A stretch of DNA of 63,375 nt, the filler included, from Stramenopiles sp. TOSAG23-6 (lineage: Eukaryota), in the NCBI GenBank assembly GCA_900128565.1. It is 10 parts of 10 records of this genome, joined end to end, with 100 filler letters (N's around TTAATTAATTAA, not from the genome) between each part and the next. Parts side by side here need not be neighbours in the genome. Positions count along the whole stretch, not along the records: positions 44,875 to 55,966 come from LT636282.1; 9 more parts are not named here. The stretch is one strand, 5' to 3'. The notes under the pieces were generated by a model. It saw nothing but the letters and a program-made list of their open reading frames with translations. It did no database searches and was not told the DNA's origin. Positions 33,728-63,375 of this stretch are shown here, in pieces; the first letter of the stretch is position 1; every line of letters starts with the position of its first letter. The translations under genes were made by a program, and so were the position numbers.

Positions 33728-34247
33728 GTACGAGTCAAAAGGTCAAATGGACAAAGCAAAGGAAATACGTCGTCAAATAGAAATAACAAGAAAGAATATC
33801 TCTGGACAAATGCAGGAAGTACGTACTAAATATATACGAAATTTAGATTTTTCAAATCCAACTGAAGAAATGCGACAAAATGCGATTCGTCATGGAATTG
33901 ATTTGAATGACTCTGTTACTGTTGAAGCTTTACAAAATATGCAAAAAAAAGGAGATTTTTTATCTTTGAATGATTCAAAAAGTCCTGATGTATTCAATTC
34001 TAATAATTCTCGAAGTTTTTATATAGCAATTTCTGTATTTATTTTCGTTTTGCTTCGATTGTACACATCAGGTTTATTAGGTTCGTTATTAACGTTTTTC
34101 ATGTTTCATAGTGTAAAAAAAACAAATGAAGTAGGGTTAGGGTTACATGGTGATATTGGTGATATTGGTGATAGTGATGACATAGGAAATATTGATATGT
34201 ATACAAATAATGGTAACACTGGATTTGATGACTCAAGAGAATTTTAA
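33728..34247 (+). CDS. Terminal exon of a hypothetical membrane-anchored protein (partial)
   Basis: Open frame after the family acceptor AATCCAT; TM segment FYIAISVFIFVLL. Confidence 0.6.
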
Positions 34248-41110: not shown

Positions 41111-43177
41111 TCAATTCCAGGGGGCGGAAAAAGGAGGACTTCTGCTTGAAAACAAGATACCAGTGCATATACCTGCTAATCCATCACCGGCAAGAAAGCC
41201 AGCAGCAACAATTTTCAGTCTTGCTTTTAACTCATCAGTGTTGCTTTCTTTTACATGAATAATTACACTATCAATCATTTCGTTTTCTTCTTTCTTTTTT
41301 TCGACATCATCATCATCCAATAGATGTGTTGATAATGACTGTTGAGATGCACTTAATTGTATATCACATACTTCCCTTTGCTTTGGCATCTTCCAACCAT
41401 AACGAAGCAATCCAATTCGGACGCATAGTCCGAAAAGAACAGTGAGAGATTGTCCAGGTAATAAGTAGATACCTATACCAACTGCAGTAGAGTGGGGCAT
41501 ATATTTTTTATTCTTTTCGCTTAGCATATAATCACTTAAAATATTATTCATAAGTGCAAACATTGCACAGATTACAGAGATTTCACCAACATTGTCTGGC
41601 AACGCACTAAACCCACCGGAAAATATAACTGCAATAGCGCGATATGACCTTGAAATTACAGCTGGCAACGAATCAGAAGGAGCAGAAGAACTTAGTATTA
41701 AATATGCAGCACTGGACACAACACAGCTTACAGCTGCCCCAAGCAACTGTGCAGCTACCATTGCTCTTGGATCTGCACCAATTATTTCGGCCGTTTTAAA
41801 ATCCCGAACAAGATCCATCGCAGCATCTACAATTGCAATTGATAATGCTCCCAATGCAAGTGCAGGAACGATATGATCAAATCCTGTTGTATCACTTGTT
41901 GCTCCTTCCCAAGCAGAGAAAAATATAATCATGAGTTTTCCACAAGCACTTGCTAAATTAGATCCAGTGACTCCAACAGATTCTCCAATTCCAATAGACC
42001 AAATTGGTCCTGCAATGACAGCAATCAGTACTTGATATGTTTTTGTTTTCGGAAAAAGTATTGGAAAAATAAAAACAGGAAGCAATCCAGTAATGAGGAC
42101 ACCGCAAAGCCATACTGAAGGTGACATTACATCTCCATTCACGCCAAAAATGCTTGTAAATGTAGAAATATCAGATTTTTTTTGAATGTTCTTTTGTTTT
42201 TCCTCTATAACATTATTTCTATTACTAGGATATCGTCTCAAGCGTTGGGCTGAGCTCAACGCGAGATGTCCAACTTTCCAAGCAGAATCAAGAACAATAA
42301 TTGATATAGCAGGCAGAATATAAAAAGCATCAAGTCCTTCAAATCCANTTGCATCTTCNGCATACCAATTTCCTTTTTTAGAATATGCAATAGGTAATAA
42401 AATACCTGATGCGATAAATGAACCAAATACTTGTGAAAGTATATATTTTGGTTCAACTATAAAGCCTTGTCCAAAATTTGCAGGAGATAAATTAGCTTTC
42501 CAATAATAGCGGTTCTTTAAAAGTGTCCCAAATATTGGGAAATCTTCGAGATCTTTCATTGTCCATATGGCCAATTTGAAAAGTATCGCAGATCCAAGAG
42601 ACTTGAGCATCAGAACAACTGTACTATCGCAATTTTTATCTATATTGGTGCTATGTAAGGATTTAATTGCCTCTGCAGATGCAGTCGCATATGGAAACGG
42701 TAGCATTAATCGTTTAATAAGTCTAGCACGAAGTGGCAGTGCAAGAAAGAAACCAAAAAAGCAAAGGGAAAAGCAGAAAAGGACGAGTTGTGCAAAAGTT
42801 GGATCAAAAGTACTACTTTCACCAACCAGAGAATCACCAGGGTACGAATTATATTTCCTCAACTGGTTGGACATGGCAAAAACAGCAAATGGGAGGGAAG
42901 CACCACCTACCATGCTTGCTGCAGCAACCGAAGTTGTTTGAAGAACTGTATTTTCCTTTGCATTGGCGAGTGGTAGATGTCTCACGGAGAATTTATGTCG
43001 CACTTTATCAGAGACTTTAAGCATTCCACATCCAAGAATTGCTGATGTAGTATTGCCCATTGTTGTCCATCCATATCGAAAAGCAAAAAAACAATTCTGT
43101 AATGCCGTTAGTGAACCCAAGAATAATCCAAAAATAAGGGCTCTAGATGTGAACTCTTCTGGCCTTTTCTTCCACAT
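41111..43177 (-). CDS. OPT/YSL family oligopeptide or metal-chelate transporter
   Basis: KENTVLQT, LPFPYATASAEAI, DLVRDFKTA..GADPRAM..AQLLG; many TM helices. Confidence 0.9.
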   Translation of the reverse strand: MWKKRPEEFTSRALIFGLFLGSLTALQNCFFAFRYGWTTMGNTTSAILGCGMLKVSDKVRHKFSVRHLPLANAKENTVLQTTSVAAASMVGGASLPFAVFAMSNQLRKYNSYPGDSLVGESSTFDPTFAQLVLFCFSLCFFGFFLALPLRARLIKRLMLPFPYATASAEAIKSLHSTNIDKNCDSTVVLMLKSLGSAILFKLAIWTMKDLEDFPIFGTLLKNRYYWKANLSPANFGQGFIVEPKYILSQVFGSFIASGILLPIAYSKKGNWYXEDAXGFEGLDAFYILPAISIIVLDSAWKVGHLALSSAQRLRRYPSNRNNVIEEKQKNIQKKSDISTFTSIFGVNGDVMSPSVWLCGVLITGLLPVFIFPILFPKTKTYQVLIAVIAGPIWSIGIGESVGVTGSNLASACGKLMIIFFSAWEGATSDTTGFDHIVPALALGALSIAIVDAAMDLVRDFKTAEIIGADPRAMVAAQLLGAAVSCVVSSAAYLILSSSAPSDSLPAVISRSYRAIAVIFSGGFSALPDNVGEISVICAMFALMNNILSDYMLSEKNKKYMPHSTAVGIGIYLLPGQSLTVLFGLCVRIGLLRYGWKMPKQREVCDIQLSASQQSLSTHLLDDDDVEKKKEENEMIDSVIIHVKESNTDELKARLKIVAAGFLAGDGLAGICTGILFSSRSPPFSAPWN

Positions 43178-43619
43178 TCTGTAAACGTCAATCTTTTGTA
43201 TTGAACTAATTGAAGGTTGTTATCTAGTTGAAAAAAAAACTTATTCTAGCTGATTTAAAATATTTATATCTGGCAAATTGGTACATAAATACAGCAAATA
43301 CTATTATTCATAGTGTTGTTGACAATGTTTTGGAAGTTCAGATGTTTCGATAGAAGAAGACATTTTTTTTGTTTGGCCTTCATCAATCTGACTCGCTCTC
43401 TCAGGAGAGCGAGTAGTTCCTCAATTTCGATTTCTCCCTTCTTTGCTAAATTGCAAATTGGAAAATTTAGATTCGAAGGTCAAAAAAAATGCAAAAAAAA
43501 TGATCAATCATCTTTTGGTGGCCATCTCGAAAGTTCGAACAAACAATTAATTCATAAACTTTATTTTTCCAGTAGTCTTTACAGTGTAACACTGGATTAT
43601 TCTAATTTATTAGTGTAAA

Positions 43620-44690
43620 ATGATGGAGCCATCAGAATCTCCTCCTTCACACAAGGTACAAAATGTCGGGATACTAAGTGATACTTCACCCCCCCCCAGT
43701 ACCACCTCCTCGACCTCAAGTGTTTGAAAAAGCACGTATCGAACGTTCACGACGAGACGCTAGTATAGAACGTGCTCGTGACGCAAGGGAGGCACTTGCT
43801 GATCTGAAACTTGAAAAGGAGCCATCAGCAGCAAAGAAATTGTTTTCTCGTTTCCTTCAAAATGTGACACCACGAACTAAAGCTCGGAGAGAGGCGAAGA
43901 GTCTTGCGCGTAAGAAAAACTTGCGCCTTGAAAAGCAAATCGCCGATAACACTCGTGAATGGGTAGAAGTTGTTTTGCCTGATATTAAAAATATGTTATC
44001 TAAGCCTAAACAATTACAACGACTTTGTTTTGCGGGGATTCCACCCAAATGTAGGTCCAGAGCATGGCTTGAATTAATCGGAAATCGAATGCAAGTGACG
44101 CCAGAGCTACTGAAAATATTTAGCGGACAAGCTACTATNTTGCGAAATAAGATAATGGATGAAAATAGACTTTTAAATAATACGAATAAAAATAAACCTC
44201 ATATTGAAAATATTAATGAGACGAAAACTAATGAGACTAATAGCAGCAAGCAAACATCAGATATACAACACAATCAACAGTTACGAAAAAAGAGTAGTTG
44301 CACACAAAATAGAAAAGAAAGTAGGTTTTTTTTGAATTTTTTTTTCATAGTAAATTTTGTACCTAACAAAAAAAATATTTTCATACCATTATAGTTCCAC
44401 TTATGTATTGATTTCAATTTTTTTCATAGAAAATTTTGTACCTAACGATTTTTTTTACTAAAAAAAAAAAAAAAAAAATATTTTTTCACAATACTCCCAC
44501 TAGAAAAGAACCAAAACAAATGGAAAAATCTCCACCGTCCAACCCTAACCCTAATACTCCCACTAGAAAAGAACCAAAACAAATGGAAAAAACTCCACCG
44601 TCCAAAAGTCGTAGATTTTCTGATACAATCACAAGAGATAAAAATATATTAGATTTAGGTCGATTGAAAAGTTTGCGTCTTATTTTTCAT
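43620..44690 (+). CDS. TBC-domain Rab-GAP, TBC1D12/14-like (partial; probable indel in the C-run near 43690; family introns about 44321-44492 and from 44691)
   Basis: EWVEVVLP..LCFAGIPPKCRSRAWLELIGNRMQVTPEL. Confidence 0.75.
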
Positions 44691-45947: not shown

Positions 45948-48425
45948 ATGAATTCACTGGAGACACGAAACAATGTCATTCCTTCATTGTTTGAACTTTC
46001 CACACAGCAGTTAAGAGCACGATGCCGTACAGACTTATTGGTTTTGATATCATCTCTGACAAAAAATGCTCGTTATGTTAGTTGTGCCAAACGTGCAGGT
46101 CAACTTCATGATATTTTCCTAAAGTTAGCTAGACCCTGCTCTCGTCAAAAGTCATTCACCGCACTCGATCATTGGTTATTCCTTCTAGACGCTTGGAAAA
46201 CTACTACACTTACTGTCTGTCGCACAAATATAACTTTCCATCCATCTTTATCTCCAGGTTTGTCGCGTTTCTCACTGTTACGAAAACTTGACGCGAGCAA
46301 CTCATGTGTTCGCGATGACTCCCTTTGTCATATTGCTACTTCACTTCCAAATATAGAATGGCTAAATTTAGATGGATGTCATATAACCGATGATGGTGTG
46401 TTTGCATTATCACAAATAAGTCTACCTTACTTGCGTATTTTGGGTCTCCGCTGTCGCAGGGTCAATATTGTATGTTTTATTTTTTTTCGATTTTGAATTT
46501 TTTTTTCGTACGCAATTTTGTACCTAACAGTTTTTTTTGAATTTTTTTCTAAAAATATTTTTACAAAATACTTGCATCTTGTAGAGCTCTCGTATTGAGT
46601 CCTAGCCAAAATAGCCAAAATAGCCAAAATAGCCCAAATAATAATATGACTTCGGGTAATTCTACCCAATCGCACACATCAAATAGCTACTCTGTCCAAA
46701 GTGCTAACAATACCACATTCATTTCGAATAAGACTGACAATATAATAATATCACAGAAAAACCTAAAACTTCCATCTTTAGAAAAACTTTCTCTCAATGA
46801 AAATGTAACATCTTGGATTTATAACAAACCTGCCCTATCAAAGACAGAATGTTCAACAATTAATATTGACTTTTCAAACATTCAAAAAATATCCCTCTCA
46901 AAATTAAAAAGAGTGTTGCGTGCATATGGCCGTAGTGGTGAAGCACTTGAAGGTTGTAGAAAATCTCTAATTAAACGCGTGTATATTTTATTTTTTTTTC
47001 AAATTCATTTTTTTTTCGTAGTAAATTTAGTACCTAACGATTTTTTTCAAAAAAAAAATATTTTTCACAAAATAGTAGTGTTATCAAAATGCAACATATA
47101 GCTGATAGAAAACTGAAACAAATGTTATTATATAATGATACTTCAGAACATAAATATATCCCTCGGCCTGTATTGTCCGTTGTCCTCTTGAAATTTCAAT
47201 TTTAGTTTTTTTCCATAGTAAATTTTGTACCTAACAAAAAAAAAAAAATTTTGAAATATTTTTTCACAATTCTTAAAAACTAAAAATATTTTTTGTGTAT
47301 GTACAGATACAAACACAGTCTGTAATTATCCACAGTGCTCTGTACATGCATCAATCCGGCCTGGCTTGTCCGGGTTACTAATGGGAGGTTGTAGTGGAAA
47401 CTGGGTAGGAAAAAGTGTAATTTTAAACATTGAATTTTTTATATTTTTTTTTTTTCGTACCAAAATTTGTACCTAATAAAAATATTCAAAAAAAATCAAA
47501 AAAAATATTTTTTCACAATACAAATCACAAACAAAAATGAAGTCACTATATGGACGAGTTGTTGGATTAGAATGGAGAAAGGTAAAATACAAGGTGGTGG
47601 TATATCATATACGTTCTCCTGATGCATTTCAATTAGTTTTCATAGAAAATTTTGTACCAGAACAAAAACGAGTTTTTTTTTANAAANTTTTTTTTTTTTT
47701 TTTGGTAAAAAAATTTTGTACCTAACAATTTCTTTATAATTTTTTTTAATTTTTTTTACAATACATTTTGGCGTAATATTCAAATCCCATTTTTATTAGA
47801 AGGAACTTATGCATGTCATATATGTGATACTAAAAAAACAAAACAAAGCACGTGTAACCCTAACCCTAATAAGATTTTAGTCAGTGATGAAAATGATACA
47901 CCCAAAAATTCCCTGAATGATTTTCATACAAAAATAGTTACAAAAAAAAAGATGAACCCTAACCCTAATTTTTCTTCAAAAATAATTACAAAAAAAGAAA
48001 TGACTTTGATAAAAAAACATATAGGAAAATACCGAAATGAAATTCAATATAAAGGAACATTAATGCATATAAAAACTAATGATTTTCATAGTAATTTAGA
48101 CAGTAAAAAAAAATATTCATGGGCTTTCGTAGGTATGTTTTCTTTTTTAATTTCGAATTTAGTTGGTTTTTTTTTATAAAAATTTTGTACCTAACAATTT
48201 TTTGTTTTTGAAATATTTTTTCACAATATATGTAAATATAATAATGGCACAATTTCTTTGAATTCCGTATGTGCAGACTTTCGTACAAAACAATTCTTAG
48301 GTACAGATTTAAATACAAAAACGAATGATGTTGTAAAGCACGAAAAACGTCGTTTGAATAGTTTTGAGTTTAGTGATTCACAAAAAGAATTTGCCCGAAA
48401 AAAAAAAAAAAAAAAAAAAAAATGA
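45948..48425 (+). CDS. LRR-containing hypothetical protein with about 6 family introns (some boundaries uncertain)
   Basis: LRKLDAS..LPNIEWLNLDGCHITDDGV LRRs; open exons between core-bearing inserts. Confidence 0.55.
47609..47766 (+). mobile_element. Family intron with AT donor and duplicated core
   Basis: ATACGT..CAATACAT; T+TT joins GGIS-F-WRN. Confidence 0.6.
48133..48231 (+). mobile_element. Introner-like GT-AT intron
   Basis: AG|GTATGT..core..CAATATAT|GT. Confidence 0.75.
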
Positions 48426-48977
48426 TTAAGTACAAAATTTTCATACAAAAAGAATTTTTTCGCAAAAAAAAATAAAATAAGTGAAGGACAAAATTTTTAT
48501 AGTACAAAAAATAAATTTGGATAGATATAATATATTTTATTCTTCACGAAAAACTTGTCTGACTTTGGATTTCGTACCATTTTTTTGTACTTATTTTTTT
48601 AGGTATGAAAAAATGGTACGGAATCCAAAGATACGTAGTCTGAAACAACTTTATTCATTCATTTATTTTTGTTGATGATGATGGAGGTAGAACAAGCGGT
48701 TTTTCATTCGGAGTAATACTACAAAACCTGCACGCAACTAGTACTTTTGGGTCCTCCACAATCCGGATTTTGAATTTCTATGGGAACCGGGTAACGATAC
48801 ATCTTGAGCGTTTCTGTTGAGATAACGTATATTAGTAACGACTTTTTTCACTTATGAGGTAGGTCATCGTACCTTTACCATTCAAGGACGCAGAATTTTC
48901 ATTCATACATCACATATATATGCGATTAATCAATCCCATGAATTGCATTTTAACTCTAGACTAAAGCAATTGCTCAT

Positions 48978-51900
48978 ATGGCACAAATTTTTAATCCTGC
49001 TCATCCACTTGGACAGGGCGCGCCGACTATGACAAGAGGGGAGAGACTTCTAAAACGTCAAGACGATCGATTACAAAGACGCAATAAAAAGAAACAAACT
49101 ATCGTTACTTTTTCTCCATTACCTCCCAAAAATATGAATGTTATAGTACCACAAACTGTATCTAATAATCAAAATACACAGTACACACAAATTGCATCAG
49201 CTGTACCACAGCGTATACAAAATAATAATAATCAAAGTACTCTATCGATGAATCATACAAATAATAATCAAAGTACTCTATCGATGAATCATACAAATAA
49301 TAATCAAAATACTCTATCGATGAATCATACAAATAATAATCCAAATACTCTATCGATGAATCATACAAATTCTCATTCATCGACTCAACTTCAACCAATG
49401 TTAAGTTCACTAGATAAAACTTCAATACCGGGTCCACCGACATCCACAACGACCATGCCTTTTGATACTGTGTATGGTAAACAGCATGAAGGCAAAGATA
49501 CAGAAAGTCATGTAATATTTGGGCAATCCACACAAAAGGATATTTATAAAGATAAACAACTTCAACAATCAAAAAAAATGATGAAACTTCAATATGCAGC
49601 AGATTTACGTGCTCAAATGCAACAACAAAAACAACGAAAAGCAGCTGATAAAAAAAAGCAACGACAAACAGTTTCAAAATTACCACCGCCACCGTTGACA
49701 GTCTATGCGCAGAAATCAACAAAAGAACAATATGCAGCAGATTTACGTGCTCAAATGCAACAACAAAAACAACGAAAAGCAGCTGATAAAAAAAAGCAAC
49801 GACAAACAGTTTCAAAATTACCACCGCCACCGTTGACAGTCTATGCGCAGAAATCAACAAAAGAACAATATGCAGCAGATTTACGTGCTCAAATGCAACA
49901 ACAAAAACAACGAAAAGCAGCTAATAAAAAGGAATTTTCTAGAAACGTAAACATCTCAAATACAGACAAAACTCAAAATCAGAGGAATTACAATAATTAC
50001 AATTTTATGCCCCAAGTTCAAGTTGATCGAAACTTTGGCTACCCTCTAGGAAGCAATAGCAGTCGTGTAGATCCTACGCAGCAATCGATTCGTGCAAATG
50101 TTGTTGATAAAAAAGCAATATATGGTGCTGAATTGCGTGAACAAATCCGACAAAAACAAATGCAGAAAGAAGCACAGGAACGCCATCATAATCCAAGAAA
50201 TACTGTGCCATATAACAGTGTACATAATACCATGCCAACATCACTTGATCATCAGCAAAATGTTGTTGATAAAAAGGCAATATATGGTGCTGAATTGCGT
50301 GAACAAATCCGACAAAAACAAATGCAGAAAGAAGCACAGGAACGCCATCATAATCCAAGAAATACTGTGCCATATAACAGTGTACATAATACCATGCCAA
50401 CATCATTTGATCATATTAATACTCCAGGGATCAATCAACAACCAATGGGAATATCACAACAGTTACCCCAACAAGAAATAGGAATGTCAAAACATTTAAC
50501 CCACCAACAACCAATAGGAATACCACGACGCTTCTCTCCCCGATCATTGGATATTCCACAACAACCAATGGGAATGCTACAACAACCAATGGGAATGCTA
50601 CAACAACCAATGGGAATGCTACAACAACCGATGGGAATGCTACAACAACCAATAGGAATGCCACAACAACCAATGGGAATGCCACAACAACCAATGGGAA
50701 TGCCACAACAACCAATAGGAATGACACAACAACCAATGGGAATGCCACAACAATTACGACCAAATATTTCACTTCCCCGACATGAAATCCATGGTGGGAT
50801 GAAGGATACAACTTCACCAACGTCGAATGCAAGGTACGGTTACATTCACATGCCATTGCATGAACAAGAGGCAATGATAGCGAAGGCAAATAAATCAGCT
50901 CGGCATCAATCAGAATTGATAGCTCAGATACGAGCTGTAAAAGCTCGTAAAGAAGCAGCTATTGCAAAAGAAAGGGAACAAGAAAGAATTGACAATGAAA
51001 AACTACAAAGGCAGCGACAAGAGTTAGCTTTAGAAGAAGAAATGCGTATCAAAGAACAAAAGGAAAGAGCGGCTGAAAAGTTGAGAGAAGAGCAAGAGAA
51101 ACAAATTAAAGCTGTACAGGCGCGGAAGGTCGAAGAGGCTAGAAGAGAAGCCGAAGCAGAACGAAAAGAAGAAGAAAAATTGCAAAGACAAAGAGCTGAG
51201 CTGTTGGCAGAAGAAGAACAACGTCAAGCTGACAAAGAAATGCAGCAAAGACGAATGGCCGAAATCAAACATTCACAAAAAATGCAAAACACAACTGCCC
51301 AAAGAAGAATGAGTCATACAAGTCAAATTAGTTCAAATAATAGGATTCCAGGTGGAGGGTTAGAAAAAAGTAGTAATGATAAAGATAATAGAAGTAATGA
51401 TATTCTAAGTATAGACAATACAAGTAATGATATCCGAAGTATAGATAATACAAATAATGGTAGAAAAAATAGTTTGAGTAAAACCTCAATATATGAAATT
51501 CCTGTTGAACGTTCGATAAATTCACAATTGAATGCACAACCGTATGAATATGGTAATAATAATAATAATATTTCACCTCATGCAAACATTGGACTTGGCA
51601 TTTCTCCTAGTAACTCTGTTGCTAAAGGATTTGATGAGAAAGAATTAGAAAATTTCCCTGAACAAATTATTAGGTTTAATGAAGAGAAACAACATCCATT
51701 GAAAACATATAACACAGTGTATGACAACAGGCCGAAAATGTTGGAACAAAATGGAAATTACCAACAAATACAAATTGCTCAATTACGCCAAGAAGTTGCT
51801 GATGCACGTAGAGCTCTTACAATCCAGAAAAATATAGATACTCAAAATAAATTAGATGTGGGTAATGAACCAAATCTTGTATCAAAACAAAACCATGACA

Positions 51901-53579
51901 TGAAAAATATCGCATCCAATACAGAAATTTCACCAAGTCACATCTCATTACAACCACCACCTGGAATATTTGATGATTCAAAGATTGAAGAAATATTACA
52001 GGATCTCAATGTACCTTACCAAAACACCGAAATTCCCACTACAACAAATGATTTCACAGGAAAAAATCTTATTCATAAAAATACAAGTAGCATTAATAGT
52101 GATATGCTTGAAACATCAGATAGACCGAAAAGCTCTTACTCTGATGTTACAATACTATTTTCTGATAATATTGATGGTGGCGTAAAAGTTGTAAAGAAGC
52201 AAAAACAGAATAACTCTTTTCTCCTGAAAAATAATACTGCTCAAGGGAAAAGAAATAATACACAAAATGACGATGAATCAACACTTGGCGTTTCCCTGTA
52301 TGGAAATAGTCATTTAATATTTGAAAAGAAAAGTAGAAATACAGATGTAAGTACATTTGAAAATTTGAATAATCTTCAGATGTTTGATGAGAGTGGAACA
52401 GAAAATGCAATGTTTAAAAAAGATGAGCGCAATGAAACACGACCTAATACGGCATCATCAATGAACTCGCAGCTCACAACAGAAACGTCGTACCATGCTG
52501 TAGAAAAATCATTAGGTACAAATAATGTGTACTCATCAAACGAAATAAATAAAATAAATCAACGTCGTCACGAGTCTAGTAATACAATTAAAAATACTAA
52601 AACTGTAGCAACTTCTCAGTCAAATATTGAAAAAATTCCTGATGCATTGGACATGTTGACGTCATCTGTCACTCGACCAAGAAGTACCAGTCGTTTCCAA
52701 CACCAAAATAATTCTGAGGAGTACGCATCTTTCAAAAGACATGGCGATTCAGTCATTATACAAGGCAATGCATCAAGACAATTACGATCCGCGGGTAATT
52801 CTTCTCAACATAATTTGAGAAAAAAGAAGCTCTCTTTGGCTGGTCAATATATTATATCAAATACACAAAATACACAAAATATAAAAAGAAGAAAACCAAT
52901 CGTAACAGTTCAAATAGACAGACAACAAAAATCACATCATATTGATAGTAGGTATGATACATATACAAAACAACCATTACCTCTATCTCCTTCTGTGACT
53001 AGAGCAAATGATGCTGCACGAAATCGGCATGAAAGAATCAAATATAAACGAAATGTAAAAGATGGACGGACTATTTCAATGACGTTGAATAATAACATTA
53101 AAACGACTCAGTCACAAATGAACACAGATAGTATGAAAAATAACTCTAACTCTAACCCTAACCCTAATGATTCAACAATGAACATTAAAAAATTGTTCGA
53201 TTTGAATAAAAAAAGACTTTCAGCTCTTGAATCAATTTCAGCGTATGAAGATAATGAAATCATTCAAAATTTACATACGACTGAAACCAACAACGATGAA
53301 ACATATTCTGATGATTTCTCTCTTTTTGATTTGTATAAAAAAAAACAAAATGAAACAAAAAAATCAAGTACAAAAATTAGTACTGAAAACTTTAATTATC
53401 CATCTAAAATCAATGATAGTGAAATTGAAAATTTTTTAGGAAAGTTTTTATTAAATGATAGTGGTGATTTACAAAACACAGATTATAATAATACATATAA
53501 CAGTAACGATGAAATTTCAAATGTTTTTAATTTCGAGTTAGAAGGAAATTCTCAATTCCAAACAATGACGTCACGTTAA
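48978..53579 (+). CDS. Large low-complexity/coiled-coil protein, CSPP1/CCDC66-like repeats
   Basis: Intronless 1533 aa; repeated YAADLRAQM, YGAELREQI and HQSELIAQI helices. Confidence 0.6.
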   Translation: MAQIFNPAHPLGQGAPTMTRGERLLKRQDDRLQRRNKKKQTIVTFSPLPPKNMNVIVPQTVSNNQNTQYTQIASAVPQRIQNNNNQSTLSMNHTNNNQSTLSMNHTNNNQNTLSMNHTNNNPNTLSMNHTNSHSSTQLQPMLSSLDKTSIPGPPTSTTTMPFDTVYGKQHEGKDTESHVIFGQSTQKDIYKDKQLQQSKKMMKLQYAADLRAQMQQQKQRKAADKKKQRQTVSKLPPPPLTVYAQKSTKEQYAADLRAQMQQQKQRKAADKKKQRQTVSKLPPPPLTVYAQKSTKEQYAADLRAQMQQQKQRKAANKKEFSRNVNISNTDKTQNQRNYNNYNFMPQVQVDRNFGYPLGSNSSRVDPTQQSIRANVVDKKAIYGAELREQIRQKQMQKEAQERHHNPRNTVPYNSVHNTMPTSLDHQQNVVDKKAIYGAELREQIRQKQMQKEAQERHHNPRNTVPYNSVHNTMPTSFDHINTPGINQQPMGISQQLPQQEIGMSKHLTHQQPIGIPRRFSPRSLDIPQQPMGMLQQPMGMLQQPMGMLQQPMGMLQQPIGMPQQPMGMPQQPMGMPQQPIGMTQQPMGMPQQLRPNISLPRHEIHGGMKDTTSPTSNARYGYIHMPLHEQEAMIAKANKSARHQSELIAQIRAVKARKEAAIAKEREQERIDNEKLQRQRQELALEEEMRIKEQKERAAEKLREEQEKQIKAVQARKVEEARREAEAERKEEEKLQRQRAELLAEEEQRQADKEMQQRRMAEIKHSQKMQNTTAQRRMSHTSQISSNNRIPGGGLEKSSNDKDNRSNDILSIDNTSNDIRSIDNTNNGRKNSLSKTSIYEIPVERSINSQLNAQPYEYGNNNNNISPHANIGLGISPSNSVAKGFDEKELENFPEQIIRFNEEKQHPLKTYNTVYDNRPKMLEQNGNYQQIQIAQLRQEVADARRALTIQKNIDTQNKLDVGNEPNLVSKQNHDMKNIASNTEISPSHISLQPPPGIFDDSKIEEILQDLNVPYQNTEIPTTTNDFTGKNLIHKNTSSINSDMLETSDRPKSSYSDVTILFSDNIDGGVKVVKKQKQNNSFLLKNNTAQGKRNNTQNDDESTLGVSLYGNSHLIFEKKSRNTDVSTFENLNNLQMFDESGTENAMFKKDERNETRPNTASSMNSQLTTETSYHAVEKSLGTNNVYSSNEINKINQRRHESSNTIKNTKTVATSQSNIEKIPDALDMLTSSVTRPRSTSRFQHQNNSEEYASFKRHGDSVIIQGNASRQLRSAGNSSQHNLRKKKLSLAGQYIISNTQNTQNIKRRKPIVTVQIDRQQKSHHIDSRYDTYTKQPLPLSPSVTRANDAARNRHERIKYKRNVKDGRTISMTLNNNIKTTQSQMNTDSMKNNSNSNPNPNDSTMNIKKLFDLNKKRLSALESISAYEDNEIIQNLHTTETNNDETYSDDFSLFDLYKKKQNETKKSSTKISTENFNYPSKINDSEIENFLGKFLLNDSGDLQNTDYNNTYNSNDEISNVFNFELEGNSQFQTMTSR
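49224..50755 (+). repeat. Series of coding tandem repeats: 36 nt x4, 138 nt x~2.4, 162 nt x2, 21 nt x~9
   Basis: NNNQSTLSMNHT; unit starts 49590/49728/49866; 50097/50259; QQPMGML. Confidence 0.9.
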
Positions 53580-54290: not shown

Positions 54291-54579
54291 ATTTAGTAGC
54301 TCTACTGCAAGGTAGATTTTATAAAAGATTTCTATTTAGTATATTATTCTAAACTTCTTTCACGTGCCGTACGTTTTTTTCTTCGGATTTCGATACCCGG
54401 TCCCCTCAAATTTATTGGCCGCACCCACAAAACAGTCAAAACTGATTGGCCGCATGTCAATCGCAAATGAAATCATCAGAATTCTGAGATTTCTGCTACT
54501 CCACTCAATTGTGAGAGATTGTGAGACACTATCTCTTGCTCATTCTTTTGCTTTCACGACAAAACATTCATAATCTATC

Positions 54580-55783
54580 ATGGCCGATAAAGTTGATACT
54601 CGCGTTCCAGTGACTGTACTTACTGGATTTCTTGGAAGTGGTAAGACTACTCTCTTGAATTACATTCTTAAAGTCCAGACTGGTTTAAAGATTGCTGTTA
54701 TTGAGAATGAGTAACTTAACTCCGAACATCTTATTTTCAAAGTAACTCGTTTCTATCATACACATCATTTGTACTTATATAAATGTTTTATTATATTGTT
54801 TACTCTATACAGGTTTGGTGAAGTTGGAGTTGATGACGCGCTTGTTAGGAAGAAATACGACTCAGAGGAAGAAATTTTCGAAATGAATAATGGTTGCATT
54901 TGCTGCACTGTTCGAGGTGACTTAATCCGTATTCTCGGAAAGATTTTCAAGCGCAAGACAAAACTTGACGCTTTGATTATTGAAACCACTGGCTTAGCTG
55001 ATCCAGCTCCAGTGGCTCAAACCTTTTTCATGGATGAAGAAATCAAGAGCAAAGCACGTCTAGATGGTGTGTTAACTGTTGTCGACTGTGCGCATATTAT
55101 TCAACACTTAGATGAGATCAAACCAGAAGGTGTTGAAAACGAAGCTGTAGAACAAGTCGCTTTCGCAGATCGCTTGCTTGTGAATAAAACAGACCTCGTT
55201 GATGAAAAGACTTTGGCAGAGGTAAAGAAACGTCTTAAGAGTCTTAATCCTGCAGCGAAACAAATTGAGTGTCAGTACTCACAAGTCGACCTTAAAGAGC
55301 TGATGGGACTCGGAGGATTTAATTTGAAACGTGTTCTCGAATTTGAGCCAGATTTTCTTGACGATGACGGTGGAGAACACATGCATGATCAATCAGTCTC
55401 CTCAGTAGGTATTCGAGAACCTGGGGAGCTCGATATGGATAAATTAAATGCCTGGCTTGGTAAATTATTGAAAGAGGACGGCGCAAACATTTATCGCATG
55501 TACGTTGTAACCCTAACCCTAACCCTTTTTTTTTTTCTAACACTTTTTTTTGACCATTTTAGAATTTCTATTTTTTTTACATTACATGAAAGGAGTGTTG
55601 GCAATCAAAGGTATGAAGGAAAAGTTTGTCTTTCAAGGAGTTCACATGCTTTTCGATGGAGAGCCAATGGTAGGAGAGGAGTGGCAAGAGGGCGAGACGA
55701 AAACGAACAAATTTATCTTTATTGGTAAAAACCTTAAAGAAGATGAACTACTTGCATCCTTTCGCGCTTGTATTGCAAAGTAA
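54580..55783 (+). CDS. ZNG1: COG0523/CobW-family Zn metallochaperone GTPase; exons 54580-54710, 54813-55499, 55588-55783
   Basis: [51 protein letters not shown]. Confidence 0.92.
54711..54812 (+). other. Canonical GT-AG intron
   Basis: GTAACT..TACAG; rebuilds ENE-FGE. Confidence 0.9.
55500..55587 (+). mobile_element. GT-AT intron carrying (CCCTAA)n instead of the hairpin core
   Basis: GTACGT..TTACAT; AT+G rebuilds IYR-M-KGVL. Confidence 0.85.
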
Positions 55784-56066
55784 TTGTGGAATATCCTCAA
55801 CTTTTGTGATGGGAAATGGTGCATTGATGCATCTAATACGATGATGATATGAATGAAGTATGTATGAGTGTGTAAGGCTAAAAAGTGTGTGACGTGTATA
55901 TGTATGTTTTATTATTTTTTTTTAACAAAAAAATCGATTTTTTTTTCGTACGAAATTTTGTACCTANNNNNNNNNNNNNNNNNNNNNNNNNNNNNNNNNN
56001 NNNNNNNNNNTTAATTAATTAANNNNNNNNNNNNNNNNNNNNNNNNNNNNNNNNNNNNNNNNNNNN

Positions 56067-57449
56067 CACAATAGTATGCTTTTGAAAAATCTGTAATTTT
56101 ATTTTGTGAAGAATCCCCAACTCCAGTGACAATAACGAAATCAGATTCCCCTGCTGGCGCAGCGATAACTCTTATATTTGAAGTATCAAGTATAATTTTG
56201 TCGCCCACCATATAACCACTGCCCCTATATACTTCATTGACCTTTACGCTCTTGAAAGTCCCAGAATCATTTAATTCAACGTCAAATTTTGCATTAACTT
56301 GATCTATTCCATTTATTGTTGCCAAATCGCTTGCCGTAAAATCAGATAAAGTTCTCTCTCCAAGTGTGGAATCAAGAAGAAACACTCCTGTGTGAATATT
56401 GCTGTTAAACTTAGCACCCTTTTCAATTAATTTAGCAGATGATACGGTAGAGATATTGGAAGAAGCTTGTGCACATGAATACTTAAACTTCCCCTCCTGA
56501 CAGTAATAGCCACTAGGACACTTCTCTTTGGTGAGTGAACCTTCAGGGCATAAATACTCAAGGCCACCACCGTTAGATTTACAAAGATGCTCTTTTCCAT
56601 TTTGACAAAACGAGCCTAGAGGGCACTTTTTTAATACTGGACCACTGAAATCGGTGGACGCAACAGCGCCTGTTCCAACAGGACAAACCCACGCTACATT
56701 TTGTCCACCATCGCTAACCAACCCTGGAGTAATTTCACAATTGTCTTTATCTCCCATGACGTCACAATTTCTGTAGACACATGTACTATATTTCGACGAT
56801 GCCACATCACAATAAGAACCTGCAGGGCAGTCTTTACAAGTTGAACTACCCAATACATTGTTAAACTTGCCTTGCTCACATGCTTTACACACGTCTGCTC
56901 CAGAGCAAAGCCCATTCCACTTACAACCAGGAGTTTTCTTGCACTTCGCAGCGCCAGCATCGTCCTTATACATACTAATATGATTACATGTTATTGAAGA
57001 ATCTAATGCAGTTCCTGTACAGCTTCCAGCAATCCATATTCGTTCAATATCTATTGTCGATGCTTTCGAATAGTGATCCCACATACCTGTACAACTTTTT
57101 TTGTTTGTTTGCAACACATCTGAGCAACCAGGTTGAGGTCGCCACTGACATGATGGTAATACACAATCACTTTGCTTCAGATGAAAGCTACATTCGCTAC
57201 TCCATTTTCCACTACCTGCTTCTCGGCAACCAAACCAGGAACACCTATTTGTCACATTAATAGCCTCATTACACACATTTTCAGATGTTTCTTCGATCGC
57301 AAGTACAACAATTTCTGTATAATCTGGATAATATCCTGTAAAAGTGTCACCAACTGAATAACCCGAACCACTCTTTATGATATTACATAATTTTGTATTT
57401 TTTTCGGCTTTAAATTGAGCCCCAAGTCCTCTACACTCTTCACCTCCAG
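56067..57449 (-). CDS. Cys-rich surface protein fragment (GCC2/GCC3, ephrin-receptor-like repeats)
   Basis: CKACEQGKF..CKDCPAGSYC and CPSGYYC; frame open across the whole contig. Confidence 0.7.
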
Positions 57450-57603
57450 NNNNNNNNNNNNNNNNNNNNNNNNNNNNNNNNNNNNNNNNNNNNTTAATTA
57501 ATTAANNNNNNNNNNNNNNNNNNNNNNNNNNNNNNNNNNNNNNNNNNNNGGTACAAAATTTCGTACGAAAAAAAAACGAATTTGAAAAAAAAATAAAACA
57601 TAC

Positions 57604-58639
57604 AAGTCGCTGATCGACAAAGAGAATTTGAGAATAGATCTGATAACTCTTTTATGCAACATTTTACTTCAACATCTGTAAACATAACTACAACTAAAGC
57701 TAGTATTGCCTGGTGTAATTGTATACTCTCCGGGCTACTCTGAAGTTCAGCAAAAGAAAACCCGCATGGAATCCAATAACGAAGACATGACAGAGTCTGT
57801 TTCAGAGCCTTGCGACGAATTTCACCTTGTTTTGCTGTCAGAAGGTATAAAAACATACGCAAAACATCAGATTTATTTGAAGATAATTCTTCGCGCAATT
57901 GTGAAATTTTTTCAGGTGTACAAAAACCGTTGTATACTTTTGAAGATGTCGTTAATTCATCGAGTTCTGTCTGAAGCGCTTCTAAAATTAGTAAAGCAGG
58001 GACAAGATGTATTGTGAAAAAAAAATCGAATTTTTTTTTGTTAGGTACAAAATTTCGTATGAAAAAAAATAAATTTGAAATTCGAAATTGAAAACGTACA
58101 TGGGTGTCTAACACTGACAAACAGTTTCTTACACACTCAGCAACACAGCCACTACCTACTGCAATAGAAACTGACGCATGTGCTAAACAAACACGTTTGC
58201 ATACACCAGGTGCCATTGCTGGAGTATCTCGCACAAGTGTATTGAGAAATTCGCGTACATTGTTCTGACCTGCCACGTCCAACGTATCCCATTGCTTCTG
58301 TACTTTTGAATATAACATATTCGCCGCATAAAATTGAACTTGCATTGATGCTACTGGTTGTTCTTGCTTTAACAATTCATATGACATTAGCCATGCTTGG
58401 GGGCTCCGGGAAAATGCAGACATCCAGTCAATAGCACGCTTATTGCCTTCATACATTGCTTTAAGTGCAATCTCAACTTGTGCCCTAGTATGGCCTTGTC
58501 CAGCATATCTAGGACTTGACACTGGAGAAATGAAGCCATCTCTCGGTGATCGTGGTGATCCTGCTAAAGATCGCGGTGTTCCTGCAGGAGATCCAAAGGA
58601 TAGTGCAGCGGATTCGCCAGTATTGGAATTAATAAACAT
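57604..58639 (-). CDS. Importin-beta family, transportin-3/importin-13-like (3' partial; intron 58007-58099)
   Basis: AIDWMSAFSRSPQAW..QFYAANMLYSKVQKQW (IBN_N). Confidence 0.75.
58007..58099 (-). mobile_element. Introner-like GT-AT intron (93 nt, read-through)
   Basis: GTACGT..core..CAATACAT. Confidence 0.8.
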
Positions 58640-58893
58640 CTTTCTTGCAGAAATGTATCCAATAAATACTACTGTAGTATTACATTTGTTTTTATCTTGA
58701 GTCAAAAACATCATTCAAAAAAATGGAAACTCGGTCGATCATTTTGCTCAATTTGCAATTTAAATGTAAAAAAGACGCTCAGAAATCGCGAACACGTGAA
58801 AAATGAATGGCTGTTGTTCATCGAAAGTCGAACAATCAGAAGCCAATCAGAAGATTCCAGCAGAAATTATTTTATAATAAAACAAAAGTAAAA

Positions 58894-58931
58894 ATGGAAG
58901 AAGATAAAGCAGCTCTCGTTGTCGATAATGG
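58894..58931 (+). CDS. Actin or actin-related protein, N-terminal fragment
   Basis: MEEDKAALVVDNG at the contig end. Confidence 0.7.
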
Positions 58932-59031
58932 NNNNNNNNNNNNNNNNNNNNNNNNNNNNNNNNNNNNNNNNNNNNTTAATTAATTAANNNNNNNNNNNNN
59001 NNNNNNNNNNNNNNNNNNNNNNNNNNNNNNN

Positions 59032-60413
59032 GCAATGCCAATGGCAAGACAAGCTCCATAACGCACATGAGAGCAATAACTAGTACTAAGTACTTTGACG
59101 AGATCTGGAACTAATTCAGGAGAACGAAATAAAACAAAACCAAGACACATAACAGCAGATCGGCGAACATCCTTATTGACATCAGTGACGGCAACGCGTA
59201 ATAAACGTTTAATGGCCGTGTTGTTTGAAGTTCCACAGAAAGCCATGCCAATAGTAAAGCATCCACCATAACGCAAAATGTGATCCTTGTCACGTAACAA
59301 TTGTTCAATAAGAGTGTTCGCTACCTCTTCTTGTGCGTACATTGTTAATGCTAAAGCCATTGCTAAACCACGAATGATTTTCTCATGTTTTGTGTCATGT
59401 GCATGAGTAAGTAATTCTTGTACACCGGCGACAACTAAATTGTCAGAGACTGAATATAAAATATCTTTCAAGTTAGAATAAATTGAAGTAGACCCGGAAG
59501 CCATCGCAGCACACCCAAGGCCAAGACAAGCCCCGTGTAAAACAGTTGGATCTCGTGTATTGTTTTGCGCATTCGTCAAATAGTCAACAATCTTGCCACC
59601 ATCCGTCCATCCTTTATTTGCATGAATTAGACCCAGAGCATAGAGAGCTCCGCCTTCAGAGAAAGGATCTGTAGTTACACTTCCACCACCAACTTGTGGA
59701 AGATATGGCTTTAAAAGTGTCAAGCTTTCACTTAAATGTCCTTTGTGTACAACACCAAGTCCTCCTATTGCAGTGAATTTTGCCCAATCAGTAGCCTTAC
59801 CTAGCCATTCAAGATTATTTCGGAGAAATACATCATGTGTTGTACCACAATTCATAAAAGCATGAGCAGTGATACAAGCATTATGTAATACAGAACTGCG
59901 AGTTCCAATTCCATCTTTCAACTTTTGAAGTAGTAATTGATCAGTTTGGTTGTGGGAACACAAGAAGTCAAGCATAATTCGAGTAGCTGCATTACCATCA
60001 AGAATACTCTTTAGAGTAATTAAACGTTCAGAATAGTCCGAATCCTCAACATCGTCAACAACGTTGGATGATTTTTCAAGCTTTACAGTGTCAACAGTAG
60101 GTACGGCATCAGCATGCATTGTGATAAAATATTTTTTTAGTAAAAAAAATTGTTAGGTACAAAATTTCGTATGAAAAATAAATTTGAAATTCATAATGAA
60201 AACGTACATTTGTCTCAGTTGACGCTGCTACTAATTTGGCTTCCTCTTCCTCTTTTTTCATCTCACTCTTCAGTTTTGGTAACGCTGTATGAACCTCACT
60301 CAAAAACTTTTGGTTTTCGCTTTCTTGTACTCGAAAAGCGACTTGATATGCAATGAGAGATTTGTTTTCTCCAGCTTTCAACAAACGATTAAGATATTCC
60401 GCCACACCAGAGG
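59032..60413 (-). CDS. PSMD1: 26S proteasome subunit RPN2 (internal fragment; intron 60114-60207)
   Basis: FLRNNLEWLGKATDWAKFTA, EGGALYALGLIHAN, HEKIIRGL, DVNKDVRR. Confidence 0.93.
60114..60207 (-). mobile_element. Introner-like GT-AT intron
   Basis: GTACGT..core..CAATGCAT; TETN-ADAV. Confidence 0.8.
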
Positions 60414-60572
60414 NNNNNNNNNNNNNNNNNNNNNNNNNNNNNNNNNNNNNNNNNNNNTTAATTAATTAANNNNNNNNNNNNNNNNNNNNNNNNNNNNNNN
60501 NNNNNNNNNNNNNGTTAGGTACAAAATTTCGTATGAAAAATAAATTCGAAATTGAAAAAAAATAAAACGTAC

Positions 60573-61741
60573 AAGCGCAAGACTATTTGTTTGTTTTTTA
60601 TGTACAATTTGAGTCGTCCAAGATCTCCACGCATGAGATTTTTGACGATGTAAAAGTATACCTATAACACGTTCTATAGAATATACAGCAACATCAATAT
60701 GAGAATTCCAAACATTACCTAATGCATTTCTTCTCAACGCTTCACATGTATTTTTGAAAAATATATATATATTTATATTTTTTTTAGTAAAAATGTTTTT
60801 GCAAGGTATGAAATTTTTTTACGAAAAAAAAAAATAATAGTTTTTTTGAAATCTCTGAAAAAAAAAAATAATAGTTTTTTTGAAATCTCTGAAAACGACG
60901 TACAGGTCCAAGTATTCCAACTTCGAGCGATTCGTACATAAATAAAATGTTGAACAACTTTATCTAATTTTAATATTGCATGTGTTTTGGAAAAATATTT
61001 CACAAAAAATCTAAAAAATTTTGTTAGGTACAAAATTTTTATAAAAAAATAAATTCGATTTTTTTGTAAAAAATAAAAAAAAATAAAATGTACATGATGC
61101 TTATTTTGATTTTGTAAAGACTCATACAACTCCGTATTGAATCCATCAACTCGAAGGCTCTCTAGTTTAGCTTGGTTTAATTTATCATGTATTTTGAAAA
61201 CATATTTGTAAAAGTTTGAACGTTTTGTAAGGTACGAAATTATTTTTGTTAGGTACGAAATTTCGTACGAAAAAACAAATGAAAGTGAAAAAATACATGT
61301 ACATGAGAACCAAACACAAACATATCCCATGCTCGAAATCCTTTTGCTTTTCGTTTGTGCAAAGCATAATCAAGAGTTCGTCCTAGTAGACGAGCNGCAT
61401 GTAGTTTGAAAAAATATTTCAAAAAAAAAATTTAAAATTTGTTAGGTACAAAATTTCGTACGAAACCAAAAAAAAAAAAAAAAATCGATTTTTTTGTTAA
61501 AAATAAAAATAAAACGTACATGCATTTTTGTCATTTTTTCATAGTACAAACTAGCCTTATTTTGGATATCACTAATTTTTTGACGTGTATTTCTATTATT
61601 TTTTTGTAAAATTACCACAATTGATTTTTGATACCATTTTGAAAACCCTTTATGAATTGCTTTGATACGAAATCGATCAATATACTTGTTAAACAATAAC
61701 AATATACTATACAAACCCTGTCGATGGAAGAGGTTGTCGAC
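60573..61741 (-). CDS. Sfi1-like Trp-repeat protein fragment; GT-AT introns 61399-61519, 61187-61302, 60980-61093, 60746-60903
   Basis: Five short exons join in frame; repeats KGFSKW, KGFRAW, RSWNTW, HAWRSW. Confidence 0.6.
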
Positions 61742-61995
61742 ATATATATTGCAAAGAATATTTAAAAATTTTGAAATTTGTTTGTTAGGTATGAATGTAA
61801 ATATTTGTTTTTAACCCTAACCCTAGTTTTTATTAGTTTCAAAAAAAAAAAAAAAAAAAAAAAAATTGAAAAGTTTAAAATTTTTGTTATTTTTNNNNNN
61901 NNNNNNNNNNNNNNNNNNNNNNNNNNNNNNNNNNNNNNTTAATTAATTAANNNNNNNNNNNNNNNNNNNNNNNNNNNNNNNNNNNNNNNNNNNNT

Positions 61996-63337
61996 ATTTG
62001 AATCCATTTCAGGAGATACACTACTCTCATCGCTTTTACCTCTACTGATCTTTCTGCGTGGCTCATGAGGCTTCCAAATATTTGGGACGGGGAGAATTTT
62101 ATTATCACACGATTGACCGTTAGCTAGTTTATACTTCTTTACTTGTCGAAAATCAGTCGAGGAAAAATCCGTTGAAGGATGAAACGTCATCATTAATCGA
62201 AAGACTTCCTCACGAATAGTTTCTGTAGTCATATTTTTCTTTTCAAAGTCAAAACTAAATAAACTATTTGCAACAGGTTCATCTTCAGGGCAATGTAAAT
62301 CTTCAAAGTATTCATGTTTTAAAATCTAATGCCATTTTGTTTGTAGTAGGGTATAATTGTGTAAATGGAATTTTCTCCCGTTTTGGAAGATTTTGCATAA
62401 ATCTTTGAGCCTTTTCATTTTTAATAAAATGCATATCTGATTCTGTTGGTGAACCTAGCTTATCAGATATTAACTGAAGTTGGTGTATATAATCATCACC
62501 TGGGAATAATGGTTTACGACCAATACATTCCGCAAAAATACAACCAACTGACCAAATATCAACAGCACTGGCATACTCTTGACATGAAAGCATAATTTCA
62601 GGTGCACGATACCAACGTGTAACTACATATTCTGTCAAATCCGATGTTTCGTCTATACCACGTGACAAACCAAAATCACAAATCTTCAAATCACAATCAG
62701 AGTTCAACAAAATATTTGAAGGTTTCAAGTCACGATGTAATACTTTAGCTGAATGCATGTACTTAAGACCACGTAATATTTGATATATAAAGTATTGAGT
62801 ATGATCGTTTGTCAATGGTTGGCGTGAATAAATAATACGATGTAAGTCAGTTTCCATCAATGGTGCAACAATGTAAACATCTTTAAATGATTGTAGTGTC
62901 TTTGAACGAGGTTGCTGTATATCTATAATATTCATTAGATTATCATGTTGGAAATGCATAAGTAACTTAATTTCTCTAAGAACGCGTTTTGCGGAAACAA
63001 TATCATCAAATGGATTTGGAATTTTCTTCACGGCAACATTACTTTCACTTTGCTTATCAACACAGGATATTACTATACCATATGCACCATGTCCAATTGA
63101 TTTAATTAGTTCATATCGACCATCAAGGTCAAACTTCGTTCCTAACACTGTAATCACATTTGATGTATCCTTGCTATCACAATGAGTTCGATTATCAGTA
63201 TTAGAATATTCACTTGAAAAATCTCTTTTTGTGACAGATTCATTCACCTGTTTCATTGGGGTAATATTTTTTTTCCCTGAGCTACTTATTTCCATCTGAC
63301 TCATTGGGGTAGACATACCGCTACCAAGACTATCCAT
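61996..63337 (-). CDS. MAP kinase, TEY type (frameshift near 62325; partial)
   Basis: GHGAYG, HRDLKPSN, DFGLSR, TEYVVTRWYRAPE; tail LKHEYFEDLHCPEDEPVA in another frame. Confidence 0.9.
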
Positions 63338-63375
63338 AGATTCTCCAAGTCTAAACCACTCTCTTTCCTTTGTTG

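Follow-up and report, generated by a model that had tools for sequence, protein, structure and literature searches.

The stretch of DNA analyzed here, hereafter the window, comprises 63,375 nucleotides (nt) including filler and joins ten contigs of Stramenopiles sp. TOSAG23-6 (assembly GCA_900128565.1) by N44-TTAATTAATTAA-N44 linkers, with a GC content of about 35%. Genes for a CobW/COG0523 GTPase, a TPR protein, an EF-hand protein, and the outer-arm dynein intermediate chain IC2 (DNAI2/IC70) are interrupted here by one or both of two kinds of predicted intron, the one bounded by the ordinary GT and AG, the other a repeated family of elements about 100 nt long that mostly begin with GT and end with AT (Table 1). 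An earlier note on this DNA had proposed that both kinds share genes, and its positions hold in each case: in CobW a GT-AG intron at 54711-54812 and a GT-AT intron at 55500-55587, the first skipped in RNA contigs and the second fixed by its join in homologs; in the TPR gene a GT-AG intron at 18408-18654 and a family intron at 19275-19373; and in the EF-hand gene a GT-AG intron at 22007-22281 followed by a family donor at 22357.

The translations of the three CobW exons were aligned with six full-length homologs (P0124, P0125, P0126, P0127, and those of Guillardia and Diacronema), and exon 2 was found to be 89% and 84% identical to P0124 and P0125, respectively. The join of exons 1 and 2, IENE|FGEVG in this gene, is an uninterrupted IENE|(F/Y)G in all six homologs, and the canonical intron at this point is precisely spliced out in polyadenylated (polyA) RNA contigs from two studies, X5 rec13 joining 54513-54710 to 54813-55190 and X6 rec19 joining 54599-54710 to 54813-54917. 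At the join of exons 2 and 3 every homolog has a single residue between R and K (IYR-M/S-KGV). The corresponding NIYR-M-KGV of this gene needs the excision of exactly 88 nt, and no GT-AG pair yields the same join. Retention of the 88 nt shifts the frame, and P0123, a gene call on a DNA contig carrying the insert, gives MYVVTLTL at this point. The intron is bordered on either side by a CATG direct repeat, and hence the borders CA..TA, AT..AC, TG..CA, GT..AT, and TA..TG all produce one CobW messenger RNA (mRNA), none of them being GT-AG. We prefer GT..AT because only these borders suit the entire family.

The sole independent DNA contig across CobW, the 1339-nt X2 rec7 from an independent seawater sample, spans 54348-55689 and retains both introns, although contigs may miss rare DNA forms; within intron 2 it has a T>A substitution at 55526 and lacks one nucleotide at 55527. 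Of the strain differences listed, five of the seven in exon 2 are synonymous, as are four of the five in exon 3, where the remaining one is E>D. Since the exon 3 differences are largely synonymous in the frame reached only after removal of the 88 nt, this exon is, as judged from the strain sequences, under purifying selection in that frame. The gene is expressed, because its GT-AG intron is spliced in RNA, and the GT-AT intron is presumably removed from RNA as well. RNA contig X7 rec30 ends at 55902, where the family element downstream of CobW begins, with two letters left unaligned, which is too little to use.

In the TPR gene, the join of exons 2 and 3 across the family intron would follow from TPR periodicity; PDB homology did not place this junction, exon 3 being too short (best E 0.065). 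The intron matches the family profile with an nhmmer E of 1.8e-13, but is itself one of the rows on which the profile was trained. In the EF-hand gene, removal of the canonical intron rejoins DEDK|SGTMERSE, which by its agreement with the consensus we take to be a calcium-binding EF-hand loop.

The dynein IC2 gene is complete and its single intron is a family member of 99 nt, in frame and free of stops. When aligned to axonemal dynein chains of solved structure, the gene product is interrupted precisely where this element lies, KYFMT|VGDWTARIW corresponding to KYFLS|(I/V)GDW in five of the five chains listed. The upstream exon ends in CT, and therefore only GT..AT or TG..CA borders yield the T of this join, an AT..AC-type shift yielding N. 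If one rule holds for all copies, TG..CA is excluded, because some upstream exons end in GC, AA, or AG.

Hand curation of 62 kb identified 27 complete elements, 26 with a common core and, in addition, CobW intron 2. The core motif TTTCGTACGAAWTTTTGTACCTA (at most three mismatches) has 29 matches in the window versus 0.00 expected. A family alignment of 26 rows was made from 25 core-bearing copies and CobW intron 2, and a family profile was built from 25 copies. Searching with the profile revealed about a dozen more partial copies, nine of them cut by contig ends, and 9 of the 18 contig ends lie inside family elements (11237, 22367, 33572, 33673, 44774, 44875, 55966, 57550, and 60514). The assembly thus breaks at the family repeat, and the genome-wide copy number must be high. 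The genes that host the copies are unrelated (CobW, TPR, dynein IC2, Rpn2, pfkB, PH-domain, and others), and all 27 elements are oriented in the sense of the reading frame they interrupt.

The elements are 92-158 nt long (median 101) with a GC content of 18%, as against 42% in CobW exon 2, and their consensus in the 26-row alignment is GTACGTTTT..ATTTCAAAT..TTTTTTTTCRTACGAAATTTTGTACCTAAC..T/A-rich..AAATATTTTTTCACAATACAT. The 5' end is a standard donor, GTAYGTTTT, and the 3' end a conserved CAMAATACAT. The branch-like box TTTTGTACCTAAC is invariant or nearly so, whereas mean column identity in the same alignment is 49%, a contrast that argues for constraint on donor, box, and 3' end. The first two bases are GT in 24 of the 27 copies, AT in two, and N in one; over the donor GTAYGT, position +3 is A in 24/26, +5 is G in 18/26, and +6 is T in 26/26. 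The last two bases are AT in 22 of 27, TT in two, AG in two, and AA in one, so that the terminal AG of a U2-type intron occurs in two copies. The candidate branch point lies in GTACCTAAC, nearly invariant in the 25 core-bearing rows. Its CTAAC is 33-47 nt from the 3' end (median 40), as compared to 37 nt in the GT-AG intron of the TPR gene, and CobW intron 2 has its own CTAAC at 47 nt. A T-run lies before the family 3' end.

Removal from GT through the last two bases (GT..NN) sets a phase that, in 23 of the 27 copies, stays open for 26 or more codons on either side, the other four being limited by an N or a contig end. In 11 copies with clean flanks, displacing the acceptor by one or two nucleotides closed the frame, and only the unshifted acceptor left it open. 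As read from the aligned copies, GT..NN is the only choice of borders that gives regular ends. The two members ending in AG (46981-47075 and 11445-11543) indicate that the same element can make a canonical intron. The last two nucleotides of the upstream exon are the same as the last two of the intron in 18 of the 27 copies (12.7 in shuffles, of which 92 in 100,000 reach 18; p 0.0009), and these matches include TT/TT twice and AG/AG once. This 2-nt direct repeat is suggestive of either a target-site duplication or microhomology at insertion.

Two copies on the plus strand, 38806-38897 and 47609-47766, start with ATACG rather than GTACG but keep the ACAT end, and the frame is open for 49-50 codons on either side. 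Either the first base can be A, or these are AT..AC introns shifted by 2 nt. Two further plus-strand stretches, 32745-32900 and 44321-44496, are compound or tandem degenerate copies with two cores each, the latter having a perfect 3' motif followed by a TC end.

The family profile does not match CobW intron 2 at E up to 10. The intron nonetheless shares with the family GTACGTT, a T-run with CTAAC, and TTTTTTTACATTACAT, and its 3' half closely resembles the GT-AT intron at 23525-23649 through TTTTTGACCAWT..GAATTTCTAY.TTTTTT.CAT..TACAT. We read all GT-AT introns of the window as probable members of one superfamily at different ages, and the (CCCTAA) block in CobW intron 2 as standing in for the 5' A/T-rich part. 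Beyond what the earlier note had proposed, the GT-AT introns are thus, by their motifs and alignment, an introner-like repeat superfamily of which CobW intron 2 is a diverged member.

Each of the three GT-AG introns comes first in its gene and lacks the family core, as the earlier note had it, a statement about order that rests on three gene models. None has a sense-strand match to the family profile, and the only antisense match (E 1.7) lies inside 22007-22281. Two ab initio scans of the window for GT-AG introns gave so much noise that canonical introns could not be counted from them.

We consider it on balance probable that the family is of the introner type and is removed by the major (U2-type) spliceosome with a broadened or duplicated reader of the 3' splice site. 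Spliceosomal introns of two kinds would then occur in the host genes, the ordinary GT-AG kind in small number and a repeat-derived kind of about 100 nt in far larger number. Every repeat-derived copy would supply its own donor GTAYGTTTT, branch-like TTTTGTACCTAAC, T-run, and CAMAATAC plus two bases. Both kinds would occur in one precursor mRNA and both would be removed by the major spliceosome, the reading of the 3' splice site having been broadened or duplicated such that ..ACAT| is accepted alongside YAG|. The major spliceosome fits because of the GTAYGT donor, the CTAAC at 33-47 nt, the T-run, and the members ending in AG, and presumably it removes the GT-AT introns. The conservation of CAMAATACAT suggests that the 3' end may be read in a sequence-specific manner, and a mobile element is the presumed source of the family.

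The earlier note had offered as explanation either a relaxed spliceosome or a second machinery in which U2AF35, Prp8, Slu7, or small nuclear RNAs (snRNAs) are duplicated. That proposal is supported in part: the donor, the CTAAC, the T-run, and the lack of both a fold and U12 signals point to spliceosomal removal with altered 3' recognition, but do not separate relaxed from duplicated machinery. Rfam and tRNA scans of the window returned nothing, including no snRNA, and no splicing factor was present among the 20 window open reading frames scanned.

Several observations weigh against removal by a modified major spliceosome. In work on yeast and mammals, the major spliceosome is not known to achieve its first-base/last-base interaction with a T in last position. 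Among the RNA contigs listed, none spans 55462-55602, the GT-AT junction of CobW, the nearest being X5 rec14, which ends at 55461, and X6 rec22, which starts at 55603. When 123,392 sites were scored with a weight matrix of the family 3' motif minus its last two bases, only the acceptor of CobW intron 1 resembled the motif (rank 193), the other two GT-AG acceptors ranking 4678 and 7205; the resemblance is real for at most one of them. The final AT of the introns (A 24/26, T 23/26) is as conserved as the remainder of the 3' motif, whereas AT closes the upstream exon in no more than 15 of 27 copies. Because the intron AT is the more uniform, a simple 2-bp target duplication does not explain everything, and the 3' AT is either also selected for or part of the element. 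Finally, terminal inverted repeats are weak, 5.8 of 14 bases versus 4.1 in shuffled sequences.

An alternative that we regard as improbable is that a transformed minor (U12-type) spliceosome removes the family, or that the family belongs to the AT-AC class and reads ATGTACG..ATAC after an exon with a final AT. Rare terminal pairs reported for U12-type introns include GT-AT, introns of this type tolerate several 3' dinucleotides, and in Physarum the minor system can reportedly expand and change its signals. Reading the borders as AT..AC gives the A-first/C-last pairing known for AT-AC introns. Fifteen of the 27 copies, CobW included, allow this reading by having AT at the end of the upstream exon, and two copies begin with ATACG. 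However, the upstream exon does not end in AT in the other 12, the shift makes both intron ends variable, and in dynein IC2 it gives N where five of the five homologs listed have S and GT..AT gives T. Neither the donor nor the spacing from branch to 3' end of U12-type introns fits the family. The donor RTATCCTT is present in none of the 27 copies, and the four RTATCCTT-type 9-mers of the window (1.6 expected) include, by the table of open reading frames, none in the sense of an adjoining long frame. The U12 branch box has the consensus TCCTTAAC and lies 10-26 nt from the 3' end; no such box near the 3' end is seen in the family, whose own box reads GTACCTAAC at 33-47 nt.

Slightly less probable still are nonconventional introns of the Euglena or diplonemid type, which may be spliceosome-independent and guided by pairing of their ends. 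In Euglena, according to the available part of one report, a gene may hold both conventional introns and nonconventional ones (PMC6221363). Pairing of the ends CATGTA..TACATG is possible over 5-6 bp and closes the minimum-energy fold in 4 of the 10 copies folded, and the marine habitat would also suit this explanation. Yet RNAalifold found no conserved pair across 26 copies, the fold z-scores range from -2.1 to +0.3 with one of ten below -2, the borders are regular (GT 24/27, 3' AT 22/27), and the 120 matches listed as relatives of the Rpn2 protein include no euglenozoan.

That the elements are never removed from RNA, whether as recent insertions into defunct genes, as DNA eliminated ahead of transcription in the manner of ciliate internal eliminated sequences, or as artefacts of assembly, is very unlikely. 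No RNA contig among those listed crosses a GT-AT junction and the assembly is fragmented with single Ns, but X2 rec7 independently crosses both CobW introns in DNA, the 27 copies lie in phase within long frames of conserved genes, dynein IC2, Rpn2, and CobW among them, and CobW has both an exon 3 with four of five differences synonymous and a spliced GT-AG intron.

Table 1. Genes, introns, and family elements located in the window (positions count along the whole stretch)
Position	Strand	Feature	Support
10987-11098	+	family intron, pfkB kinase gene	
11445-11543	-	family intron ending AG; preceding exon likewise ends AG	
18376-18407	+	TPR gene exon 1	
18408-18654	+	TPR intron 1, canonical GT-AG, 247 nt, CTAAC 37 nt from 3' end	
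18655-19274	+	TPR exon 2	TPR matches in PDB
19275-19373	+	TPR intron 2, family member with core, NT..AT (first base N), 99 nt	in-frame stops
19374-19525	+	TPR exon 3	
19719-21563	-	outer-arm dynein IC2 (DNAI2/IC70) gene, complete	E 1e-129 to Chlamydomonas IC70
20271-20369	-	family intron in dynein IC2, GT-AT, 99 nt	PDB alignment break
21917-22006	+	EF-hand gene exon 1	
22007-22281	+	EF-hand intron 1, canonical GT-AG, 275 nt	removal rejoins loop DEDK|SGTMERSE
22282-22356	+	EF-hand exon 2	
22357-22367	+	family donor GTACGTTTTCA after EF-hand exon 2, cut by contig gap	
23088-23189	+	family intron	49/49 open codons
23525-23649	+	GT-AT intron without core, nearest relative of CobW intron 2	
23999-24112	+	family intron	
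27353-27449	+	family intron	
30940-31038	+	family intron, PH-domain gene	
31188-31288	+	family intron	
31431-31532	+	family intron, preceding exon ends GT	
32530-32627	+	family intron	
32994-33103	+	family intron, preceding exon ends GC	
38181-38288	+	family intron, preceding exon ends AA	
38413-38513	+	family intron	
38806-38897	+	family intron starting ATACG (AT..AT)	50/50 open codons
46470-46573	+	family intron ending TT; preceding exon likewise ends TT	
46981-47075	+	family intron ending AG (GT-AG member)	
47175-47274	+	family intron ending TT; preceding exon likewise ends TT	
47417-47523	+	family intron ending AA	
47609-47766	+	compound family intron, two cores, starts ATACG	
48133-48231	+	family intron	
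54580-54710	+	CobW/COG0523 GTPase exon 1	ATG at 54580; translation aligns with homologs
54711-54812	+	CobW intron 1, canonical GT-AG, GTAACT..ACAG, 102 nt	RNA contigs, homolog join
54813-55499	+	CobW exon 2	P0001, 228 aa, PF02492-type homologs
55500-55587	+	CobW intron 2, GT-AT, GTACGT..ACAT, 88 nt, diverged family member without core	homolog join
55509-55525	+	telomere-like (CCCTAA) block within CobW intron 2	
55588-55783	+	CobW exon 3, C-terminal domain, TAA stop 55781-55783	P0002 aligns with homologs
55902-55966	+	5' part of family element 3' of CobW stop, cut by contig end	nhmmer E 2.2e-06
58007-58099	-	family intron, importin/exportin-like gene	
60114-60207	-	family intron, proteasome Rpn2 gene	
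60746-60903	-	GT-AT intron with degenerate core and internal duplication	
60980-61093	-	family intron	
61187-61296	-	family intron	
61399-61519	-	family intron	

Other features of the window were recorded in passing. Telomere-like AACCCTAACCC blocks (at most one mismatch) number 18 versus 0.34 expected, for example at 31889-31917, 34134-34144, 44541-44551, 47856-47866, 47955-47965, 53148-53164, and 55509-55525. Several fall in phase within long reading frames and are translated there as NPNPN, or as GLGL from the opposite strand; with a unit of 6 nt, insertions preserve the frame. The blocks may mark breaks healed by telomerase. Three identical 55-nt copies (1-55, 1298-1352, and 1455-1509) surround the N run at 1353-1454 and stand at the head of a frame of 2057 codons (1310-7483) that has He_PIG and teneurin-type EGF matches; the triplicate is probably an assembly duplication around the gap. 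The plus-strand frame of 1539 codons at 48960-53579 has no Pfam matches and contains tandem repeats of 21 nt (about 10-12 copies, 50426-50795) and repeats of 36 nt (49188-49403). An OPT oligopeptide transporter (41114-43219, minus strand, E 4e-78) is encoded in one unbroken frame of 702 codons that has no family intron. The last five contigs (56067-63375) are each 1381-1383 nt long and follow four of about 11.1 kb. The contigs seem to be ordered by size, and adjacent ones are therefore not linked in the genome.

The best named relatives of a 360-residue piece of Rpn2 (58983-60113, minus strand) are from oomycetes (55-56% identity), brown algae, and an ochromonad, and we read the host as a probable stramenopile. 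A diplonemid origin with nonconventional introns was considered and rejected, because the best named Rpn2 relatives are stramenopiles and no end-pairing fold was found. The CobW stretch is present in seawater metagenomes and polyA metatranscriptomes, which makes the host organism marine, and the dynein intermediate chain encoded in the window makes it a flagellate. Metagenome contigs of JGI contained no CobW relative above 73% identity and no match to the exact 25-nt core pattern. The GC content of MAST-4A single-cell assemblies, given as 33.9% in the available text of PMC5269757, is near the window value but does not fix the lineage here.

Few signals in eukaryotic gene expression are as well conserved as the terminal AG, and a genome whose conserved genes have mostly AT-ending introns with ordinary donors and branch boxes isolates the 3' recognition step. 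If the proposed mechanism is correct, these introns would allow a direct test of what reads the last two bases, be it U2AF1, Slu7/Prp18/Prp8, or the first-base/last-base contact, and would constitute a new case of intron gain via a repeat family. Published gene models of such organisms, restricted to GT-AG, would then be systematically wrong, with truncated or split proteins and an underestimated intron density.

In the literature, supplements excluded, we found no description of a GT-AT introner family in marine stramenopiles. The accessible papers on genomes of uncultured marine stramenopiles make no mention of non-canonical introns. The accessible part of PMC5269757 calls introns 'few but long', and in the accessible main text of PMC5778133 the word 'splice' is absent and introns appear only in the methods (exon-intron boundaries and the definition of RPKM). 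As far as their available text goes, introner surveys begin with annotated introns and check for familiar splice sites (PMC9860276, PMC12130899), and surveys so built would miss the GT-AT family.

The comparisons that follow draw on the available portions of the reports cited. Nonconventional introns of euglenids and hemistasiid diplonemids likewise coexist with conventional introns in the same genes (PMC6221363, PMC12621601), but have variable borders and extensive end pairing, neither of which is found here, and the present host is not a euglenozoan. Amoebophrya, likewise a marine protist, has over 60% non-canonical introns, a repeated subset of them with border direct repeats of 3-5 nt; it differs in that no dinucleotide pair dominates, inverted repeats of 8-20 nt form hairpins, and U1 snRNA was undetected (PMC7789003), whereas the present family has regular borders, a donor that looks compatible with U1, and no hairpin. 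The introners of Micromonas, Aureococcus, dinoflagellates, and others are likewise short, AT-rich, multi-copy, and sense-oriented in unrelated genes, and there too the element brings part of the splice signals, is bordered by a short direct repeat, and leaves mRNA length unchanged upon removal (PMC9860276, PMC12130899). The published families are GT/GC/GA-AG, in contrast to the AT (22/27) and AG (2/27) ends and weak inverted repeats described here.

The duplication of U2AF has a direct precedent in Fritillaria borealis, in which diverged U2AF1/U2AF2 paralogs recognize non-canonical 3' ends (PMC13326754), and rare GT-AG introns occupy conserved positions while the non-canonical ones are recent, species-specific, and associated with inverted repeats (PMC11282704). 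The resemblance lies in a genome in which mostly non-canonical, repeat-derived introns stand beside a few GT-AG introns, in non-AG 3' ends, AT included, that are handled there by a U2-type spliceosome, and in element ends that, if weakly here, resemble inverted repeats. In Fritillaria, however, introns depart from the canonical form at the 5' end as well, AG-AC and AG-AT being the prevailing pairs, and their borders are very diverse, whereas GTAYGT and ACAT dominate here, and the one host is a tunicate, the other a stramenopile-like protist. A further-reaching proposal, which we offer tentatively and regard as doubtful in its entirety, would make this the cleanest natural example of splicing rewired at 3' splice-site recognition only. 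It holds that in an abundant lineage of marine stramenopiles the ..CAMAATACAT introner has become the majority intron class, removed by a major spliceosome with a dedicated non-AG reader, such as a U2AF1/U2AF2 pair that has diverged or step-2 factors that have changed, in convergence with Fritillaria except that the 5' end is fully canonical.

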